UHGV virus genome: UHGV-0133447
DNA length: 28,245 nucleotides
Source: a virus
Reading direction: 5' to 3' (one strand)
The position numbers and the translations under genes were made by a program. Below are positions 6,494-23,785 of this stretch, in pieces (position 1 is the first letter of the stretch; the number at the start of each line of letters is the position of its first letter). Below the pieces are notes generated by a model, which was not told the DNA's origin, did no database searches, and saw only the letters and a program-made list of their open reading frames with translations.

Positions 6494-6496
6494 GGC

Positions 6497-6522
6497 CAAA
6501 GAAAAAGCCCACCGAAGTGGGC
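6497..6522 (-). terminator. intrinsic terminator (minus strand) with UUCG-type tetraloop
   Basis: Minus-strand reading ggcccac-ttcg-gtgggc followed by TTTTCTTTGG. Lies downstream of the TerB-like gene. Confidence 0.5.
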
Positions 6523-6896
6523 CTTACAGCTATCATCATTTTTTATTAGGTGTGGTGCCGGGTGCCTCCCGGTAAGTCGCCGCCAGTCCACAGACGACTC
6601 GCAATGCGCAAAAAAACATATCAGACTGGCAATGCCCCTCCGCATAGGGGGATTCACCACACGGATAATTTAGGATGTAGTCATAGGCGGCGTCAATAAC
6701 TGACACTCTGTCAAAGGCATCATTACGATGCCTTTTGCACAGTGCTAATCACTGGATCTAATAAGGGGCCAGAGCAAAGCGATTACCCCGGCTACCAGCA
6801 CGCCATCAGCCAGGATTGACATCATTTTGCTGGTGAAGTCGATAGCAACCACCAGAAACAAAAGCACCCCGGCTGCGGCCCAGCGAAGTTTACCGA

Positions 6897-7954: not shown

Positions 7955-8008
7955 GCCTACTCCTGGTATGGGTCCTGTGCTTAAATAACGCCGAGCGTGG
8001 CGCAGATA

Positions 8009-8033
8009 CGAAAAAGGCCCGCGAATGCGAGCC
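8009..8033 (-). terminator. intrinsic terminator-like hairpin (minus strand) upstream of the HNH-AP2 gene
   Basis: Minus-strand reading ggctcgc-attc-gcgggcc (7-bp stem, one G-U pair) followed by TTTTTCG. Confidence 0.45.
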
Positions 8034-8246
8034 TGATGGATCCGCTTACTGATACGGAGCGACCAACCTAAGTTGTCGCAGATTCAAATTGTGGCCCTGC
8101 CTTTAAGTCACTTTGCGCGCAGCTGGGACATGTAGTTTTCGCATCGTGATCGGGATTCGCTTCAGACGCTGGCCCCGCAGCCATTTAAGTGCCGGTTACG
8201 TTTATCCGGCGGCTTTCGCCCGGTTAAGCCCTAAGGTAAGGGATTT

Positions 8247-8393
8247 GGTTGTGACACCAGGCCGTTACGCCTGCTTACTTCCTGCCGCTCTGTTTTGGTA
8301 TTGGCCGCCAGTAACTGCGACTCAGCCGATTTACAGGTCTTTGCGTCGGCCGGCGCTGCAGCCCACTTGAGCACATCACAACGGAAAGAGCGC
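8247..8393 (-). ncRNA. candidate structured tRNA-like element, copy A (degenerate)
   Basis: Minus-strand leader gcgctctttccgttgtgat resembles the leaders at 21901 and 22159. gttgtga can pair with tcacaac about 130 nt downstream to close the element. Contains gcgccggccgacg internal motif. Region 8036-8505 has no credible ORF. Confidence 0.3.
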
Positions 8394-8505
8394 TTAGTGC
8401 ATTTAAGCCAAACCCCATGTAGGAAGCACTCTTACCTGTTGTGCGCTCCGTTTCGTGGAGCAGACGCCGCCGGAATCGCACCGGCAGAATCATCACATTG
8501 GTATA

Positions 8506-8581
8506 TGGTGCTGGTTGACGGAATCGAACCGCCGACATCCTGCTTACAAGGCAGGCGCTCTACCAGCTGAGCTAAACCAGC
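8506..8581 (-). tRNA. tRNA-Thr (anticodon UGU), phage-encoded
   Basis: Minus-strand 76-nt cloverleaf GCTGGTT-TA-GCTC-AGCTGGTA-GAGC-G-CCTGC-CTTGTAA-GCAGG-ATGTC-GGCGG-TTCGATT-CCGTC-AACCAGC-A-CCA. Acceptor 7 bp, D-loop GG, anticodon loop with U33 and A37, canonical T-loop, encoded CCA. Confidence 0.8.
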
Positions 8582-9621
8582 AAATTACGCATTTCACTGA
8601 CCGTCTGTTCAAATCTCTCGGTTTCCAGTTCGACACCTAGTCCCCTTCGCCCGAGAAGAGCAGCCTGCTTGAGCGTTGAGCCTGATCCAAAAAAGAAATC
8701 AGCTACAACATCACCCGGGCGGCTACTCGCTGTGATTATCTGCTCCAGCATATCCGCAGGCTTTTCACATGGGTGTTTACCTGGATAAAACTGAACAGGC
8801 TTATGAGTCCAGACGTCGGTATATGGCACCGTGACCGATACGCTGAATGGTCGCCGTAAACGGTAATATTCCTGCTGGAGTTCAGAATATTTTCGGCTTA
8901 ACGATTGCCAGGTGCCGACAAGCTGGTGGTGAGGTTTTCCCAGTTCGTTGCGTGAGTGCTTATCCATGGCGATTGTTTGAAACAAAGCCTGCAACTTTAA
9001 ATAATCGGCTTCGTTCGGTAGCTGCCACTGACTAAGGCCAAACCAGTGGGAAACCATATTTTTCTTACCTGTGGCTTCTGCAATCTGAGCCGACGTCACG
9101 CCAAGAGATTCCCGTGCATCACGGAAGTAAGAAATTAAAGGCGTCATGACGTGTTGCTTTAACTCATTACACTTTGCGGCATATCCATCGTCTTTGGGCC
9201 TGTATGGCCCCTGATAATGGTCGGCAAAAATGATACGCTCAGTGGCCGGGAAATAAGCGCGTAAGCTCTCCTTATTGCAGCCGTTCCATCGCCCTGATGG
9301 CTTAGCCCAGATGATATGGTTGAGCAGGTTAAACCGCTCTCTCACCAACAGCTCAATATCCGCTGCCAGGCGGTGCCCACAGAACAGATACATGCTGCCG
9401 GCAGGTTTTAACACTCGCCAGAACTGTGCCAGACAGCTATCCAGCCAACGTAAATAGTCTTCGTCCCCCTTCCATTGGTTATCCCAGCCGTTTGGCTTCA
9501 CCTTAAAATAAGGCGGATCGGTAACAATAAGATCAATGGAGTTATCGGGTAGCGATGGGAGGTATTGCAGGCAATCAGCATTGATTAACTCAATACTGGA
9601 TATTTTTACAGTATTTTTCAT
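8572..9621 (-). CDS. orphan DNA methyltransferase, N6-adenine/N4-cytosine (beta) class
   Basis: 349 aa with TDPPYF catalytic motif near the N-terminus. No adjacent restriction endonuclease. The ORF's last codons overlap the 5' end of the tRNA. Confidence 0.85.
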   Translation of the reverse strand: MKNTVKISSIELINADCLQYLPSLPDNSIDLIVTDPPYFKVKPNGWDNQWKGDEDYLRWLDSCLAQFWRVLKPAGSMYLFCGHRLAADIELLVRERFNLLNHIIWAKPSGRWNGCNKESLRAYFPATERIIFADHYQGPYRPKDDGYAAKCNELKQHVMTPLISYFRDARESLGVTSAQIAEATGKKNMVSHWFGLSQWQLPNEADYLKLQALFQTIAMDKHSRNELGKPHHQLVGTWQSLSRKYSELQQEYYRLRRPFSVSVTVPYTDVWTHKPVQFYPGKHPCEKPADMLEQIITASSRPGDVVADFFFGSGSTLKQAALLGRRGLGVELETERFEQTVSEMRNLLV

Positions 9622-20018: not shown

Positions 20019-20029
20019 ATATGTACCTC

Positions 20030-20105
20030 CTGTGTACATATTACACGAAAGAAATGAACCTTCAAGGTACTTGTACCTTGAAGGTACACACGGTTTAATT
20101 TCAAT
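20030..20105. promoter_or_regulatory. divergent cI/cro promoter-operator region
   Basis: Palindromic operators gtaccttgaaggtac (20074-20088) and accttcaaggtac (20058-20070). Minus-strand TTGAAG-16-TAATAT promoter candidate toward cro. Plus-strand TTTAAT -10 candidate immediately before the cI ATG. Confidence 0.5.
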
Positions 20106-20780
20106 ATGAAAACAATCCAGGAAATCAGGCGGTTAAACGCCAGAAAATTGCGTGATGGTGTTGGCGGTAATATTTACTTCGCCAATATGATTGATCGCGA
20201 GCCTACTCAAACCAGCCGGTTCATGGGAGATGGCGCCACTAAAAACATCGGCGATGCAATGGCAAGGCACATTGAAAAGTGTTTTGACTTACCTACTGGG
20301 TGGTTAGATCAGGAACATCAAACCACTAATGTTGCTAAAACGCCCGATGTCTCTGATACAAATAGAAATATCACCATGGTTCCGGTTATATCCTGGGTAC
20401 AAGCAGGAGCATGGACCGAAGTTGGCTATGCTGAGGTTGATTTGAATAGCACTGAAAACTATCCATGCCCTGTGCCTTGTGGGCCGATGACTTATATTCT
20501 TCGTGTTATTGGCGACTCAATGATCGACGAATATAGGCCCGGTGATATGATTTTTGTTGATCCCGAAGTTCCAGCAGTGCATGGAGATGATGTGATCGCC
20601 TTAATGCACGCTTCTGGTGAGACTACATTTAAACGGTTGATTGAAGATGCAGGACAACGCTATCTAAAAGCACTTAACTCAAATTGGCCAGAACCTTACA
20701 TCAAAATCAATGGTAATTGCTCTATCATTGGCACCGTAATTTTTTCCGGTAAACCAAGACGATACCGAACGAAAACATAA
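20106..20780 (+). CDS. cI: CI-like phage repressor (HTH plus S24 LexA-type peptidase domain)
   Basis: 224 aa. C-terminal VIGDSMIDEYRPGDMIFVD...FKRL carries the Ser/Lys S24 signature. N-terminal HTH region. Divergent from cro. Confidence 0.9.
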   Translation: MKTIQEIRRLNARKLRDGVGGNIYFANMIDREPTQTSRFMGDGATKNIGDAMARHIEKCFDLPTGWLDQEHQTTNVAKTPDVSDTNRNITMVPVISWVQAGAWTEVGYAEVDLNSTENYPCPVPCGPMTYILRVIGDSMIDEYRPGDMIFVDPEVPAVHGDDVIALMHASGETTFKRLIEDAGQRYLKALNSNWPEPYIKINGNCSIIGTVIFSGKPRRYRTKT

Positions 20781-20794
20781 CAAAGACTATTAAA

Positions 20795-20815
20795 CCTGCT
20801 TCGGCGGGTTTTTTT
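20795..20815 (+). terminator. intrinsic terminator after cI
   Basis: cctgc-ttcg-gcggg (5-bp stem with one G-U pair, UUCG loop) followed by seven T. Confidence 0.55.
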
Positions 20816-20819
20816 ACAC

Positions 20820-20848
20820 TTGACAATGTACCTCAACGGTACATAATG
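20820..20848 (+). promoter_or_regulatory. strong sigma70-like promoter with embedded operator (PL analogue driving the early-left operon)
   Basis: TTGACA (20820-20825), 16/17-nt spacer, CATAAT/ATAATG (20842-20848). The spacer contains gtacctcaacggtac, the same GTACC-N5-GGTAC operator type as in the cI/cro region. Confidence 0.55.
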
Positions 20849-20953
20849 TACCTAAAAGAAACAGCGAACAGGCAGGACGCCCACGAAGTAGCCGCCCGGG
20901 GCATATGAAGTCCGGGATGATTCGCTGACAGATAAACCAAATAGGAACAGATC

Positions 20954-21187
20954 ATGGCAAGCAAAGGCATTGAAAACCTTATCAAGGACGCATTGGCAAA
21001 CGGCTGTCATGTAGTCCGTAAAGCGCATCGCTTCGAGGTAAGCAAGAAAGGCCAAAAATCAATCACTCTTATTATTTGTGAAGATGGCACAGCTTACCGG
21101 GGAGATATTGACCTAACGATCGCCATAGCCATTCGCACTCAAAAAGAAATGCGCAGAATCCTCGGCCTGCCAGCCAAGGCAAGTTAA
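20954..21187 (+). CDS. hypothetical early protein (77 aa)
   Basis: First ORF after the PL-like promoter; AGGA about 8 nt upstream. No family recognised. Confidence 0.45.
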   Translation: MASKGIENLIKDALANGCHVVRKAHRFEVSKKGQKSITLIICEDGTAYRGDIDLTIAIAIRTQKEMRRILGLPAKAS

Positions 21188-21900
21188 TTACCACAGGTGT
21201 CTTCGGGAGGGGTTGCGGAGCTGGATTGACCACCAGCAACAGAAACTCACCCGACATACAGCAGCCGTTTAGCCCACGGCGTCGGGGGTCCAGTAGACCT
21301 GGATTAATACTGTAGGGGTTGTGCCGGTTGGTCGCCGGCGCCCCGCCCGAAGATTCCTGATCGAACATGGCGAAAGCCGACAGCGTTGAAGGCGATTTTC
21401 TCGGTTTGCGCGCTAAACAATAGCGGGGGTGAAATCGGGGCGGAGAAGCAGAATCCGCGATGTCGGGACTTGATACTTCCGGCCAGACCAACAAGCCGAA
21501 TGATCGCGTAACGGTCCTTTGCATCTGCCCCGGCGAGGTGGCGCCGCCGGACCGGGGCAGATGAATCGTACACAACATGAAAGCGCATTCCATCTTCATC
21601 CGTCGTGGGGACTGGTTTGTAACTGAAGGAGTGCGCTTCCAGTTGTGAACGGCAATATTCACGACCGTTGTATGGCACATGCAGCGTTAGCAGCCCGGAT
21701 GGTTCCCTTGAAGTTCCATGCGCTATCCGGACAACTGGAATGTGCAAGCCAAGTGTTTCAGGCACGACGTGCGCCCCACCAGCGCGGCGAAAAGGTGTGA
21801 CCCCCGGGAAGAGTCCGGGACACAACAGGAAAGAGTACTGAAGATGCCAGGAAACGCCCTACCGCCAGGCAGATAGACGGGTTATCCCGCAAGGGGTGGC

Positions 21901-22043
21901 GGCAGTGCTCTTACCGTTGTGGTGTAGCTCAAATGGATAGAGCGCCCCTTATGTGGGGAGTTGAGCACTAACCAATGTTCGCAACACAGGTTATCTCATG
22001 CGGCCGGCCGGACGTTATGCGGGTTCAAATCCCGTCACCACAG
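21901..22043 (+). ncRNA. candidate tRNA-like structured element, copy B1
   Basis: Leader ggcagtgctcttaccgttgtggt. TGTGGTG (21918-21924) pairs with CACCACA (22036-22042). D-arm-like GCTC-AAATGGATA-GAGC. T-arm-like GCGGG-TTCAAAT-CCCGT (22019-22035). About 60 extra nt between the anticodon-like region and the T-arm. No encoded CCA. Confidence 0.3.
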
Positions 22044-22080
22044 CGCACAACGATGAGGGCATTGACGAGCAAGGCACAGA

Positions 22081-22099
22081 GTCTGGTTCGATTCCAGAC
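22081..22099 (+). other. tRNA T-arm-like hairpin (loop TTCGATT)
   Basis: gtctgg-ttcgatt-ccagac, a 6-bp stem with a loop identical to the tRNA-Thr T-loop at 8506-8581. Confidence 0.4.
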
Positions 22100-22138
22100 G
22101 CCAGGATAGCTCTATATCTGGTGATGGGCAGGGAAAAG

Positions 22139-22155
22139 GTCCGTTCGATTCGGAC
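22139..22155 (+). other. tRNA T-arm-like hairpin (loop TTCGATT)
   Basis: gtccg-ttcgatt-cggac, a 5-bp stem with the same loop sequence. Confidence 0.4.
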
Positions 22156-22158
22156 ACC

Positions 22159-22290
22159 GGCAGTGCTCTCTTCGTTGTGGTAATTGCGGCTATGCGCACG
22201 TGACGAGCCAACCCGTTCATGGAATGCGTTTCCGGGCAGTGTACGTCGCCGGTTATGGCTTAACCCGGCAGGTGGAGGCACCACCGCCAC
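22159..22290 (+). ncRNA. candidate structured element, copy B2
   Basis: Leader ggcagtgctctcttcgttgtggt matches the 21901 leader at 20 of 23 positions. gttgtgg (22173-22179) can pair with ccacaac (22284-22290). Internal cgtcgccgg motif. Confidence 0.25.
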
Positions 22291-22529
22291 AACCTAGTTA
22301 ACTGTGCTGTGTGTAGTCTTGGCGGTTATCCAGTTTTCCACTATCCAAAGGAGGAAGAGGATAACGTTCTGATGGATAACCGCCCTTTTTACACAATACA
22401 AAAGAGCATCACCGGGCGACGGGCTCATTACCCAATCCACCCGGGCGGCGTCCTAACCGCAGGTGCTCTTCTGTGTTGTGTACGGAGAAATTCCCGGCGG
22501 TGGCAGCCGCCTTTCGAGAGGGTAAAACC

Positions 22530-22901
22530 ATGAGTAATGATCGCATGACAGTAGTGCCCGATTTCCTGGGTGAACTGGACGCCGGCGTATTCATGAACAA
22601 GATTGCGGCGGCTCTTAATACCACCGCGCTCGGCGTTCTGAACAACGGCAACAAAGGCAAGGTTGTCCTCACCTTTGATTTTGAGCGTATGGGCAACTCT
22701 GTTGAAGAGAAGCGCGTCAAGATTAAGCACAAGCTGAACTACAGCACCCCAACTCCCCGCGGCAAAGCGTCGGAGGAGGACACCACCGAAACACCAATGT
22801 GGGTTAACAAAGGTGGCAAGCTCACAATCCTGCAGGAGGATCAGGGGCAACTCTTCGGTATCACCGGCGCGGTGGACGGAAAGCTTAAAGCGGCTCAGTG
22901 A
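22530..22901 (+). CDS. conserved phage early-region protein (possibly YfdP-like)
   Basis: 123 aa from ATG 22530 (GAGAGGG upstream); the track ORF starts earlier at 22473. Precedes the DUF2303-like and HD-domain genes, as in the CPS-53 yfdPQR block (memory, uncertain). Confidence 0.5.
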   Translation: MSNDRMTVVPDFLGELDAGVFMNKIAAALNTTALGVLNNGNKGKVVLTFDFERMGNSVEEKRVKIKHKLNYSTPTPRGKASEEDTTETPMWVNKGGKLTILQEDQGQLFGITGAVDGKLKAAQ

Positions 22902-22957
22902 ACCGCACGTACAAATTCACTGATACCACTTCGCTAATCAGTTAATAAGGAATTTTT

Positions 22958-23785
22958 ATGTCTCAGTTAGACAGCGGTACTTTTCAGCAGGTTAAAGATC
23001 TGGTGCTTTCCGGTTATCACCTGAACGATATCCCCGGCCTGGCCTGTCCGACCGCCCTGCTACCGCAGAATACCAGCATTGAAAGCCTGGAGCGTTTTGC
23101 TCTTGAGCGTTTCCGTTTCCGCGGTGCAATGGACACGACTAGCATTGATGATTTCGTTCGCTATTCTGTCGCTTATGCCCTGGAAGAAGAAAAAGCACGT
23201 TGCTTTATTGATGCCGATAACATGCTGGCTCGTTCTATCTTCAACATCGGTACGCTGGATAATCCCGGCCACGCTGATAACGTCGCCTCGATCAAGCTAA
23301 AGAAAACAGCGCCCTTCCGCGCGTTACTGGCGATCAACGGCGATCACCTTAATCAGAAGCAAATCGCCGAATGGCTTGAAGACTGGAGCGACTATCTCAC
23401 TGCGTTCGATGCTGACGGTAACACGATGAAAATCGCCCAGGCCGCTCAGGCAGTTCGCCGCGTCACCATCCAGCAAACTAATGCCTCCGACCATGAAGAT
23501 GGTGATTTCAGTGGCAAAAAATCGCTGATGCAGAGTATTGAAGCCAGCAGTAAAGAGGTTATGCCGGTAGCGTTTGAGTTTAAGTGTGTACCCTATGAAG
23601 GCTTGGGCGAACGTCGTTTCAGTCTGCGCAACAGTCTGCTGAAAAGTAATGACCCGGTATTCGTCCTGCGTATCGTCCAGTTGGAAGCCCAGGAAGAAGC
23701 GATCGCCAATGAGTTCCGTGATCTGCTGGTTGGCAAGTTCGCCGGCAAGCCGGTAGAAACCTTTATCGGCAACTTCAAGGCCTGA
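22958..23785 (+). CDS. DUF2303-like protein (YfdQ-like)
   Basis: 275 aa with AAGGA RBS. Size and position relative to the HD-domain gene match YfdQ-type prophage proteins (memory). Hairpin aaatccccg/cggggattt follows at 23797-23822. Confidence 0.55.
   Translation: MSQLDSGTFQQVKDLVLSGYHLNDIPGLACPTALLPQNTSIESLERFALERFRFRGAMDTTSIDDFVRYSVAYALEEEKARCFIDADNMLARSIFNIGTLDNPGHADNVASIKLKKTAPFRALLAINGDHLNQKQIAEWLEDWSDYLTAFDADGNTMKIAQAAQAVRRVTIQQTNASDHEDGDFSGKKSLMQSIEASSKEVMPVAFEFKCVPYEGLGERRFSLRNSLLKSNDPVFVLRIVQLEAQEEAIANEFRDLLVGKFAGKPVETFIGNFKA

Follow-up and report, generated by a model that had tools for sequence, protein, structure and literature searches.

Two T-arm-like hairpins within a predicted structured RNA of prophage early regions in Enterobacterales

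The locus and its hairpins

The viral genome UHGV-0133447 was analysed as one stretch of 28,245 nucleotides (nt), hereafter the window, in which an earlier note had pointed to two hairpins resembling the T-arm of transfer RNAs (tRNAs). Both are present as that note described them, gtctgg-ttcgatt-ccagac at 22081-22099 and gtccg-ttcgatt-cggac at 22139-22155. They belong to a unit termed here module B, which sits between the gene for a CI-like repressor and early genes resembling yfdP and yfdQ, with no integrase adjacent. Comparison of homologous sequences indicates that they are genuine T-arm-like hairpins and supply two of three apical arms in a conserved structured RNA of ~135 nt, with the following parts.

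22046..22179, + strand: module B as a whole, a four-way junction of basal stem, hairpin 1, variable hairpin and hairpin 2
22046..22067, + strand: basal stem P1, 5′ strand CACAAC-GAUGAGGGCAUUG-A-CG, pairing with 22158-22179
22068..22080, + strand: unpaired 5′ joiner AGCAAGGCACAGA, in which GAG.A.G shows little or no variation in alignments A1 and A2
22081..22099, + strand: hairpin 1, T-arm-like, with a stem of 4-6 base pairs (bp) and loop UUCGAUU, from covariation and loop conservation
22101..22121, + strand: variable hairpin, at the position of an anticodon arm, with the strongest covariation of all helices
22122..22138, + strand: purine-rich joiner UGAUGGGCAGGGAAAAG, in which U.GGCA..AA is invariant in A2
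22139..22155, + strand: hairpin 2, T-arm-like, with a 5-bp stem and loop UUCGAUU, 99.4% of cells paired
22158..22179, + strand: basal stem P1, 3′ strand CG-G-CAGUGCUCUC-UUC-GUUGUG, from RNAalifold and pair counts

At the DNA level, the 5′ strand of P1 reads CACAAC-GATGAGGGCATTG-A-CG and is complementary to CG-G-CAGTGCTCTC-TTC-GTTGTG. The earlier note had regarded the hairpins as isolated and without an acceptor-stem partner, a description that no longer holds: a helix of ~21 bp (22046-22067/22158-22179) closes the whole unit, and hairpin 2 stands two bases away from the 3′ strand of this helix.

Hairpins of this kind are rare by chance. A scan of both strands of the window for 5-bp stems closed by G-C and carrying a TTCRAYT loop returned exactly three, namely hairpin 1, hairpin 2 and the T-arm of a tRNA-Thr; the expectation is 0.0165 (mean of 2000 dinucleotide-preserving shuffles), and no shuffle held two or more. 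With at most one mismatch, GGTTCGATTCC is matched four times in the window against 0.52 times expected. As the earlier note had stressed, the loops are identical to that of the tRNA-Thr, but this identity carries no information, TTCGATT being a generic T-loop. The loop TTCAATT is about as frequent as TTCGATT among the homologues, and identity with the tRNA-Thr extends over 11 nt in hairpin 1 (GGTTCGATTCC) and 9 nt in hairpin 2 (GTTCGATTC), beyond which the flanks differ.

Conservation and fold of module B

Module B is widespread in phages and prophages of Enterobacterales. By BLAST, positions 22048-22197 have counterparts of ~81-82% identity in Uetakevirus (SPN1S/SPN9TCW), Stx2 phages, phage 1720a-02 and ~100 E. 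coli genomes; one Klebsiella phage is 98% identical, and phiNP and others match further 3′. The matching phage records number 44, Uetakevirus and Stx2 phages among them, and a 20-mer from hairpin 2 occurs in 110 viral contigs. A degenerate pattern of the core was found in six species-representative genomes (Yersinia, Rouxiella, Ewingella, Erwinia, Izhakiella and Edwardsiella), and the copies in these six genera all reach 136-160 bits with the covariance model of this analysis (R1), by which the window copy scores 149 bits (E 2.5e-40). Phages carrying module B include those of Klebsiella, Escherichia, Salmonella and Citrobacter. The core is carried by 133 fetched loci, from which 65 distinct copies were aligned. 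Conservation across related prophages, on which the earlier note had made its proposal depend, is clearly present.

The fold is common to these copies. RNAalifold, run on 57 of them, gives a consensus of one stem and three hairpins with 13 compensatory pairs. When the explicit structure is counted on the 65 distinct copies, to which the counts below also refer, 93.2% of cells are paired, and sliding the partners by 1-3 columns lowers this share to 36-55%. Changes on both sides are seen in 17 pairs. The covariation score of 0.252 compares with 0.05-0.07 for slid and 0.111 for shuffled partners, and none of 500 shuffles equals it. In P1, 95.5% of the cells of 21 pairs are paired and 7 pairs are changed on both sides; the stem contains one bulge and one mismatch, U·U or C·U, which is kept at alignment column 12/132. 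Pairs 41-55 and 42-54 of the stem of hairpin 1 covary through UA, AU, CG and GU. The stem of the variable hairpin is almost wholly replaced between copies yet remains paired, with no constraint on the length or sequence of its loop; for pairs 60-80, 61-79 and 62-78, the sequences with changes on both sides number 21-32 each. Close relatives are frequent among the 65 copies, so that such counts of covarying cells exceed the number of independent events; neither the variety of pair types nor the range of genera depends on this kinship. In hairpin 2, the stem occurs as GUCUG/CAGAC, CUCCG/CGGAG, GUUCG/CGAAC and AUUCG/CGAAU, and the loop is constant in all. The joiners, GAGCAAGG and UGGGCA..GAAA, are unpaired and nearly invariant. 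An all-against-all scan of columns for tertiary pairs or pseudoknots was too noisy, and the one additional pair that stood out cleanly, columns 33-83 (C-G to U-A), comes from a single clade.

The loops follow a different rule from the stems. Both vary only at positions 57, 59 and 60 of tRNA numbering, with G in 39 and A in 26 copies at position 57 and slight variation at 59 and 60; the sole exception is a U55-to-G change in hairpin 1 of one copy. This is the conservation pattern of real tRNA T-loops. A second anchor was placed in the 5′ joiner, with hairpin 2 not required; it recovered further variants among many chance matches, and hairpin 2 was present every time, its stem compensated and its loop unchanged. 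The earlier note had also suggested functional T-arm mimics, and this idea gains support as far as sequence analysis reaches, since the stems covary and the loops keep G53, U54, U55, C56, R57, A58 and C61.

The selected object can be located on one strand. At paired positions, G·U combinations occupy 113 cells and A·C combinations 17, and the length of the module varies from 131 to 140 nt across copies. Together these features indicate that selection acts on the RNA of the + strand, and neither on a protein-coding sequence nor on a palindrome at the DNA level. The overlapping open reading frames (ORFs) at 21998-22183 (+), 22015-22290 (-) and 22035-22220 (-) were rejected as coding candidates, their frames being broken by indels of 1, 2, 4 and 5 nt and by stem-wise covariation.

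Relation to known RNA families and to tRNA genes

The detectors of known RNA families do not recognize module B. ARAGORN, run on the window, calls the tRNA-Thr only and nothing at module B. A cmscan search of 21500-23000 at E<=10 reports a tRNA only at 21918-22043 and no Rfam family over 22044-22181, and at gathering thresholds Rfam (release Rfam 15) places no family on module B in the whole window or in five related loci. Measured against known classes, module B lacks a complete cloverleaf and contains the canonical T-arm (G53 U54 U55 C56 R57 A58 .. C61) twice. It matches no family model of bacterial Y RNAs and shares with them, in architecture only, a long terminal stem with a T-arm domain. 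Its P1 forms a mostly Watson-Crick duplex of the ~20 bp or more expected of an RNase III site. No description of module B was found in the literature on prophage, DicF-like and tRNA-like RNAs, T-loop RNAs, small RNAs (sRNAs) of ST64B or tRNA decoys; a preprint on the Pas sRNA proved to be unrelated. Module B may therefore be regarded as a candidate new RNA family without an Rfam entry, best likened to a tRNA-like structured RNA or a processing module.

A hammerhead ribozyme was also considered. In module B, UUGACGAG and GAAAAG resemble the core CUGANGA...GAAA, but C3 is replaced by U, the helices do not abut the core and no Rfam match exists; the G of the GAAA-like element is not conserved (CCAAAU in loci L152 and L154, CUAAAU in L142).

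The earlier note had thought of relics, either of tRNA genes or of integration events targeted to a tRNA, and this idea deserves to be weighed in its general form, in which the hairpins have no function and are what is left of one or two decaying tRNA genes or of an attachment site derived from a tRNA. The array around module B, described below, holds true tRNAs and a degenerate-looking tRNA-like unit; within the module, AGAGCA is followed ~21 nt later by a T-arm, loosely like the 3′ two-thirds of a tRNA; and a tRNA-like payload of Klebsiella phage LASTA has the same CTGGTTCGATTCCAG T-arm as hairpin 1. An evolutionary origin of the hairpins from tRNA is plausible. That they are mere decaying remnants is hardly credible: all four helices are compensated and the joiners invariant across at least six genera and several phage types, a spread that also excludes an alignment drawn from a single recent clone. 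Purifying selection with compensatory changes in every helix, the missing anticodon arm and the silence of ARAGORN and of the Rfam tRNA model, the latter at E<=10, speak against a tRNA gene relic, as does an identity with the tRNA-Thr that amounts to only 11 + 9 bases. An integration relic finds no support either. The element lies in the middle of the prophage and not at its end, no integrase is adjacent, and contiguous tRNA identity including the acceptor strand is lacking; only the loop is common with the tRNA-Thr, which is itself phage-encoded and lies behind a methylase gene, not an integrase gene.

Genomic context and promoter

Module B lies in an early region of classical composition. 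On one side are Cro-like and CII-like genes on the - strand and the S24 CI-like repressor gene on the + strand (20106-20780), and on the other side follow the yfdP-like ORF and a DUF2303/YfdQ gene. The S24 CI-like repressor is found ~1.5 kb upstream on the same strand in 106 of the 133 loci. Clustering of ORFs within ~3 kb in the 133 loci yields no conserved partner proteins other than the CI-like repressor and those usual in an early region. SPN9TCW_003, examined as a possible relative of YfdP, is unrelated. In the window, the repressor gene is followed by a hairpin with a T-run, read from the sequence, and then by the promoter of the array.

20820..20847, + strand: sigma-70-like promoter TTGACA-16-CATAAT, with 11 of 12 matches, the only one found in 20700-22960

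A perfect copy of the operator TGTACC-N5-GGTACA (20827-20843) overlaps this promoter, and three copies of the same operator occur in the intergenic region between cI and cro (20022-20088). From these sequences, one repressor probably acts both on the cI/cro region and on the array promoter. As the promoter is the only one upstream and shares its operator, the array is best understood as an early, repressor-controlled transcript of the PL type.

Several other features of these phages concern small genes and RNAs. The leader contains an ORF of 77 amino acids (20954-21187, +) without Pfam match, which looks like an inserted moron. In phiNP, which lacks this ORF, the leader runs directly on from ...gatgattcgctcagaacatggcgaaagcc, and the window is similar on both sides of the insertion (~20915-20930 and 21348-21375). 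Elsewhere in the window, Rfam recognizes STnc100, a prophage-associated sRNA, at 6494-6691 on the - strand (100.7 bits). Phage 1720a-02 (L002), which carries module B, also encodes a C4 antisense RNA (37-124, 82 bits) and isrK (149-225, 59 bits) beside an antirepressor gene, and its phage family thus holds several RNA-based regulators.

An array of RNA units with a common frame

The basal stem of module B belongs to a recurrent frame, CACAAC-(~13 bp)...(~13 bp)-GTTGTG, which occurs four times on the + strand, each time with a different apical part. The units around module B are listed below.

21571..21647, + strand: stem module M0, with the CACAAC...GTTGTG frame
21821..21921, + strand: stem module A, which R1 finds through the stem alone (30.9 bits, E 9e-7)
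21918..22043, + strand: tRNA-like RNA with acceptor stem, D-arm and T-arm (Rfam tRNA 40 bits, gathering threshold 29)
22174..22293, + strand: payload C, closed by GUUGUGG...CCACAAC, directly 3′ of module B
22308..22390, + strand: DicF-like hairpin with a U-run, GGCGG...CCGCCCUUUUU (GGCGG...CCGCCC), a weak DicF match and a reading of the sequence
22392..22480, + strand: stem module D (CACAAU...GUUGUG), found by the frame search in the 5′ untranslated region (UTR) of the yfdP-like ORF

RNAs closed by the opposite pairing, GUUGUGG...CCACAAC, alternate with the frames and are, depending on the phage, tRNA-like, otherwise structured or true tRNAs. Neighbouring units overlap: the 5′ leader of the tRNA-like RNA at 21918-22043 is the 3′ strand of stem module A, and GUUGUG of the 3′ strand of P1 is also the start of the next RNA. 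The GTTGTG/CACAAC hexamers can pair inward, giving module stems, or outward, giving payload stems, so that alternative foldings are built into the array. The tRNA-like RNA contains an insert of 68 nt in its anticodon/variable region and a TTCAAAT T-loop, and it is not called by ARAGORN. The hairpin at 22308-22390 scores 16.5 bits with the DicF model (RF00039), far from its gathering threshold of 48 (E 1.7), and can be called DicF-like by resemblance only. Situated upstream of yfdP, it is probably an intrinsic terminator that ends the array; a scan for consensus terminators lists no + strand site in this region.

The contents of the frames vary. Among the loci, 16 cargo clusters are distinguished; the double T-arm leads with 88, in part because it served to collect the loci, and the cargo type of module D recurs in 23 loci. 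Phages that are otherwise similar can carry different payloads. Payload C has a counterpart of 93.5% identity in phage LASTA (Lastavirus; L114 2400-2523), where it stands directly 5′ of a tRNA-Arg(TCT), and this likeness in an unrelated phage suggests that array units may be exchanged between phage types. The layout recurs in LASTA, behind the lysis genes, with the stem of one frame covaried (CATAACGGGTAGCTCACTTG / CGAGTGAGCTACTCGTTGTG). In SPN9TCW, the last three bases of module B are already the first three of a tRNA-Arg(TCT). True tRNAs after the module were found by ARAGORN in a handful of 115 loci, all of them tRNA-Arg(TCT), and the idea of module B as a general leader of a tRNA was discarded because true tRNAs adjoin it only rarely. 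The minimal leader, at locus L005, keeps module B with a downstream payload reduced to an 18-nt hairpin.

A frame of this kind could also be seen as an element of DNA, the ~19-bp inverted repeats CACAAC...GTTGTG being ends of mobile elements or sites of cassette exchange and the hairpins incidental. The same inverted repeats do surround 16 cargo clusters, and the differing payloads of similar phages are what exchange at the frame would produce. We nevertheless consider this explanation very improbable. The excess of G·U (113) over A·C (17) fits only an RNA of the + strand, the internal helices covary as well, the orientation to promoter and terminator is constant, each array has one copy, and target-site duplications are lacking. 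Homologous recombination at the frame probably shuffles the cassettes, which is compatible with an RNA function.

A second array lies on the - strand, headed by the tRNA-Thr(TGT) at 8506-8581. This tRNA gene lies behind a DNA methylase gene (8572-9621, Pfam N6_N4_Mtase), and its position there, at the head of an array, identifies it as phage-encoded and not as a host tRNA used as attachment site. Two units follow it.

8469-8485, - strand: T-arm-like hairpin GCCGG-UGCGAUU-CCGGC, a GGTGCGATTCC match downstream of the tRNA-Thr
8377-8443, - strand: stem module with the CACAAC...GTTGTG frame (R1 24.2 bits, E 7e-5, at 8375-8445)

The rest of this second array consists of a small hairpin, a payload of the phiNP type (~8248-8382) and a terminator-like hairpin near 8008-8035.

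RNA ends and the case of sRNA-17

Experimental data exist for a neighbour of module B. In E. coli K1 RS218, sRNA-17 was defined as an RNA of 193 nt by Northern blotting and 5′/3′ rapid amplification of cDNA ends (RACE), and it originates from a prophage intergenic region of >1 kb (PMC7719688). In the supplementary alignment its rows start with gttgtggtgaatgcgcaggc and end with ggtaccgctctttt (PMC7719688). The corresponding sequence in E. coli IHE3034 is GTTGTGGTGA...CTCTTTTT (L116 3624-3816), which is exactly 193 nt long. IHE3034 is presumably of the same sequence type as RS218, ST95. Module B occupies L116 3497-3631 in this genome, and sRNA-17 starts within the 3′ strand of the module stem, its 5′ end being the G of GUUGUG at the bottom of that stem. 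It is composed of a payload and a terminator hairpin (L116 3762-3816), which forms the 3′ end and corresponds in the window to the DicF-like hairpin at 22308-22390; the payload of the window (22174-22293) differs in sequence from its counterpart in sRNA-17. Partial matches to the 351-nt stretch of module plus sRNA-17 occur in 1781 of 5426 complete E. coli genomes, with 241 places on plasmids, and the whole contiguous stretch occurs in 77. Among the matches listed in E. coli genomes, none carries an annotation under the module or sRNA-17.

The location of the 5′ end of sRNA-17 inside the module stem suggests a processing site. In the window, no promoter-like sequence is found at the position of this start, the interval 20700-22960 containing one upstream promoter only. 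The mapped end would also suit RNase P, if this enzyme cut where the downstream helix begins to pair.

Replacement of sRNA-17 was accompanied by an increase of yfdP by log2 ~6.6 (~96-fold) and an increase of yfdR (PMC7719688). The rise of yfdP fits the loss of a terminator, but it could alternatively come from the inserted resistance cassette. It bears on an explanation that is unlikely but substantial enough to be weighed, according to which module B is not released but is a cis-acting leader, affecting the transcript of which it is part through antitermination across the DicF-like terminator (in the manner of HK022 put RNA), stabilization of the messenger RNA or RNase III-dependent control of translation. 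In this case the location would be telling: ~80% of the copies lie between a repressor-controlled promoter and the yfdP/yfdQ early genes, a terminator-like hairpin separates module B from yfdP, module D, with the same stem, sits in the yfdP 5′ UTR, and the leader of L005 consists essentially of a 5′ hairpin and module B followed by coding genes. The replaced segment included the terminator hairpin, and the replacement raised yfdP ~2^6.6-fold together with yfdR (PMC7719688). A cis function accounts less well for the stand-alone units of other phage types, for the SPN9TCW copy that stands among structural genes directly 5′ of a tRNA-Arg, and for the arrays with the same frame behind the lysis genes of LASTA; the resistance cassette used in the deletion could by itself explain the yfdP increase. 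Moreover, put RNA is not known to have T-loops or any resemblance to module B, which counts against a cis-acting leader of that kind.

Possible functions of module B

The reading preferred here, with about an even chance of being right, is that module B is a cargo unit of a modular, non-coding early array, released by cleavage of the frame, and that its T-loops are elbow-like surfaces. Upon prophage induction, an early transcript carrying module B would start at the repressor-controlled promoter (20820-20847). The shared frame of ~21 bp would act as a processing element, and cleavage at its base would both set module B free as a stable RNA and create the 5′ end of the downstream RNA. Two enzymes are candidates for this cleavage: RNase III, because the duplex is long and has a conserved internal mismatch, and RNase P, because the mapped end is the first paired base of a downstream acceptor-like helix of 10 bp. 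The transcript of the array would end at the DicF-like terminator upstream of the yfdP-like early genes. The T-loops would fold as true T-loops, and the conserved GG joiners would probably cap them in the way that the D-loop caps the T-loop of tRNA; we infer from the sequence that the purine-rich joiner may be the D-loop-like donor of GG to the T-loops. The released domain would expose one or two surfaces resembling the tRNA elbow to RNase P, TruB/TrmA, other tRNA-binding factors, a defence factor or neighbouring parts of its own transcript. Since other frames carry other cargo and L005 keeps the module without a full payload, the T-loops are better explained as cargo with a function of its own than as punctuation.

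Several observations weigh against this scheme. Since equivalent stem modules exist without T-loops, punctuation as such can do without them. Folded alone by minimum free energy, the window copy does not form hairpin 1, whose outer two pairs are unpaired in ~1/3 of the copies and whose pair 42-54 is mismatched in 11 copies; the counts of covarying cells are inflated by the kinship of many copies. The RACE applied to sRNA-17 was of the circularisation type, by which primary and processed 5′ ends are not separated, and the authors interpret their data by an ArcA-regulated promoter upstream (PMC7719688). The cutting and accumulation of module B itself are predictions. As for the alternative fold that a single sequence gives to the region of hairpin 1, it receives no support from the homologues and was rejected.

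Module B might also act in trans, as a tRNA mimic or decoy that titrates a reader of the T-arm or elbow, its place in the array being incidental. The reader could be a tRNA-targeting defence nuclease or toxin, a modification enzyme, RNase P or the ribosomal site that contacts the elbow. Such a role would explain why the loops are strictly kept at the T-loop positions of tRNA while the stems and the third hairpin drift, why the module moves between unrelated phage backbones in promoter-to-terminator units that also contain true tRNAs, and why L005 retains it without a payload. We hold this possibility to be doubtful: apart from the CI-like repressor, no protein family consistently co-occurs with the module in the 133 loci, and no partner emerges from them. 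The best-known anticodon nucleases target the anticodon arm, which module B does not have, and this too counts against a decoy. A bolder proposal makes the array a new class of RNA cassette array, in which exchangeable cargo domains on the common frame alternate with tRNAs and tRNA-shaped RNAs. The double T-arm cargo would then be a two-elbow tRNA mimic or a docking platform, recruiting or titrating an elbow reader such as RNase P or a defence or modification factor directed at tRNA, or else a self-cleaving motif that punctuates the array; this proposal appears distinctly unlikely.

Module B would matter in several respects. A strongly covarying RNA family of ~135 nt, spread across Enterobacterales prophages, would be new to Rfam and to genome annotation, and sRNA-17, a published RNA linked to virulence, would become a processed unit of a larger phage early-leader array in place of a free-standing gene. 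RNase P, modification enzymes and the ribosome all take hold of tRNA by its T-loop. Two strictly selected T-loops, switched on at prophage induction, would suggest that phages manipulate or borrow the tRNA-handling machinery in an undescribed way. The layout of cassettes in a shared frame may account for the way in which phages build up and swap sets of tRNAs and small RNAs.

Comparison with known RNA systems

The closest model for the hairpins is the tRNA T-arm. They share with it a stem of ~5 bp closed by G53-C61 and a 7-nt loop UUCRAYU, in which positions 53, 54, 55, 56, 58 and 61 are invariant and positions 57, 59 and 60 variable, as well as the place of the last arm beside the closing helix. 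Unlike a tRNA, module B has two T-arms in one junction and neither D-arm nor anticodon arm, its closing helix measures ~21 bp instead of 7, it has no CCA end, and tRNA detectors remain silent.

Another parallel is provided by YrlA, the Rsr/Ro60-associated RNA whose 5′ and 3′ ends form a long stem carrying a multi-helix tRNA-like domain that includes a T-arm. Module B likewise combines a long terminal stem with a multi-helix domain that imitates part of a tRNA. Bacterial Y RNAs are described as widespread and as mimics of tRNAs (PMC4201824). Module B differs from YrlA in having no Rfam match to Y RNAs, no evident D-arm mimic and two T-arms instead of one, and in lying in a phage early leader and not in an rsr-rtc operon; no rsr gene was noticed near it, although no systematic screen was made.

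Processing hairpins of RNase III are found between cistrons of phage early transcripts (T7 R0.3-R1.3, the lambda N leader) and in spacer stems of ribosomal RNA. The frames resemble them as repeated, related and imperfect duplexes of ~20 bp with an internal mismatch, placed between functional RNAs of a polycistronic early transcript, with one copy in the 5′ UTR of the first downstream gene. They differ from them in that their apical parts are large conserved structured domains and not small loops, and in that their cleavage is predicted.

Non-tRNA species that are cotranscribed with tRNAs or shaped like them, released by the tRNA machinery and encoded near immunity or early regions are represented by the T4 species 1/2 RNAs, the C4 RNAs of P1/P7 and the CI RNA of P4. 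Module B has no sequence or model similarity to any of them, and the Rfam C4 match of phage 1720a-02 lies elsewhere (L002, 37-124). The relation to sRNA-17 is of another nature: the two share an intergenic region in this prophage family, and the 5′ end mapped for sRNA-17 is the GUUGUG closing the stem of module B, but sRNA-17 is the neighbouring unit and not the double T-arm module, of which its paper contains no description (PMC7719688).

Finally, the presence of two T-loops in one junction recalls the interdigitated double T-loop of T-box stem I, the RNase P S-domain and the L1 stalk. In that motif, two T-loops lock together and form a platform for the tRNA elbow. Judged by its sequence, module B may offer a comparable arrangement, since it too brings two T-loops into a single junction.

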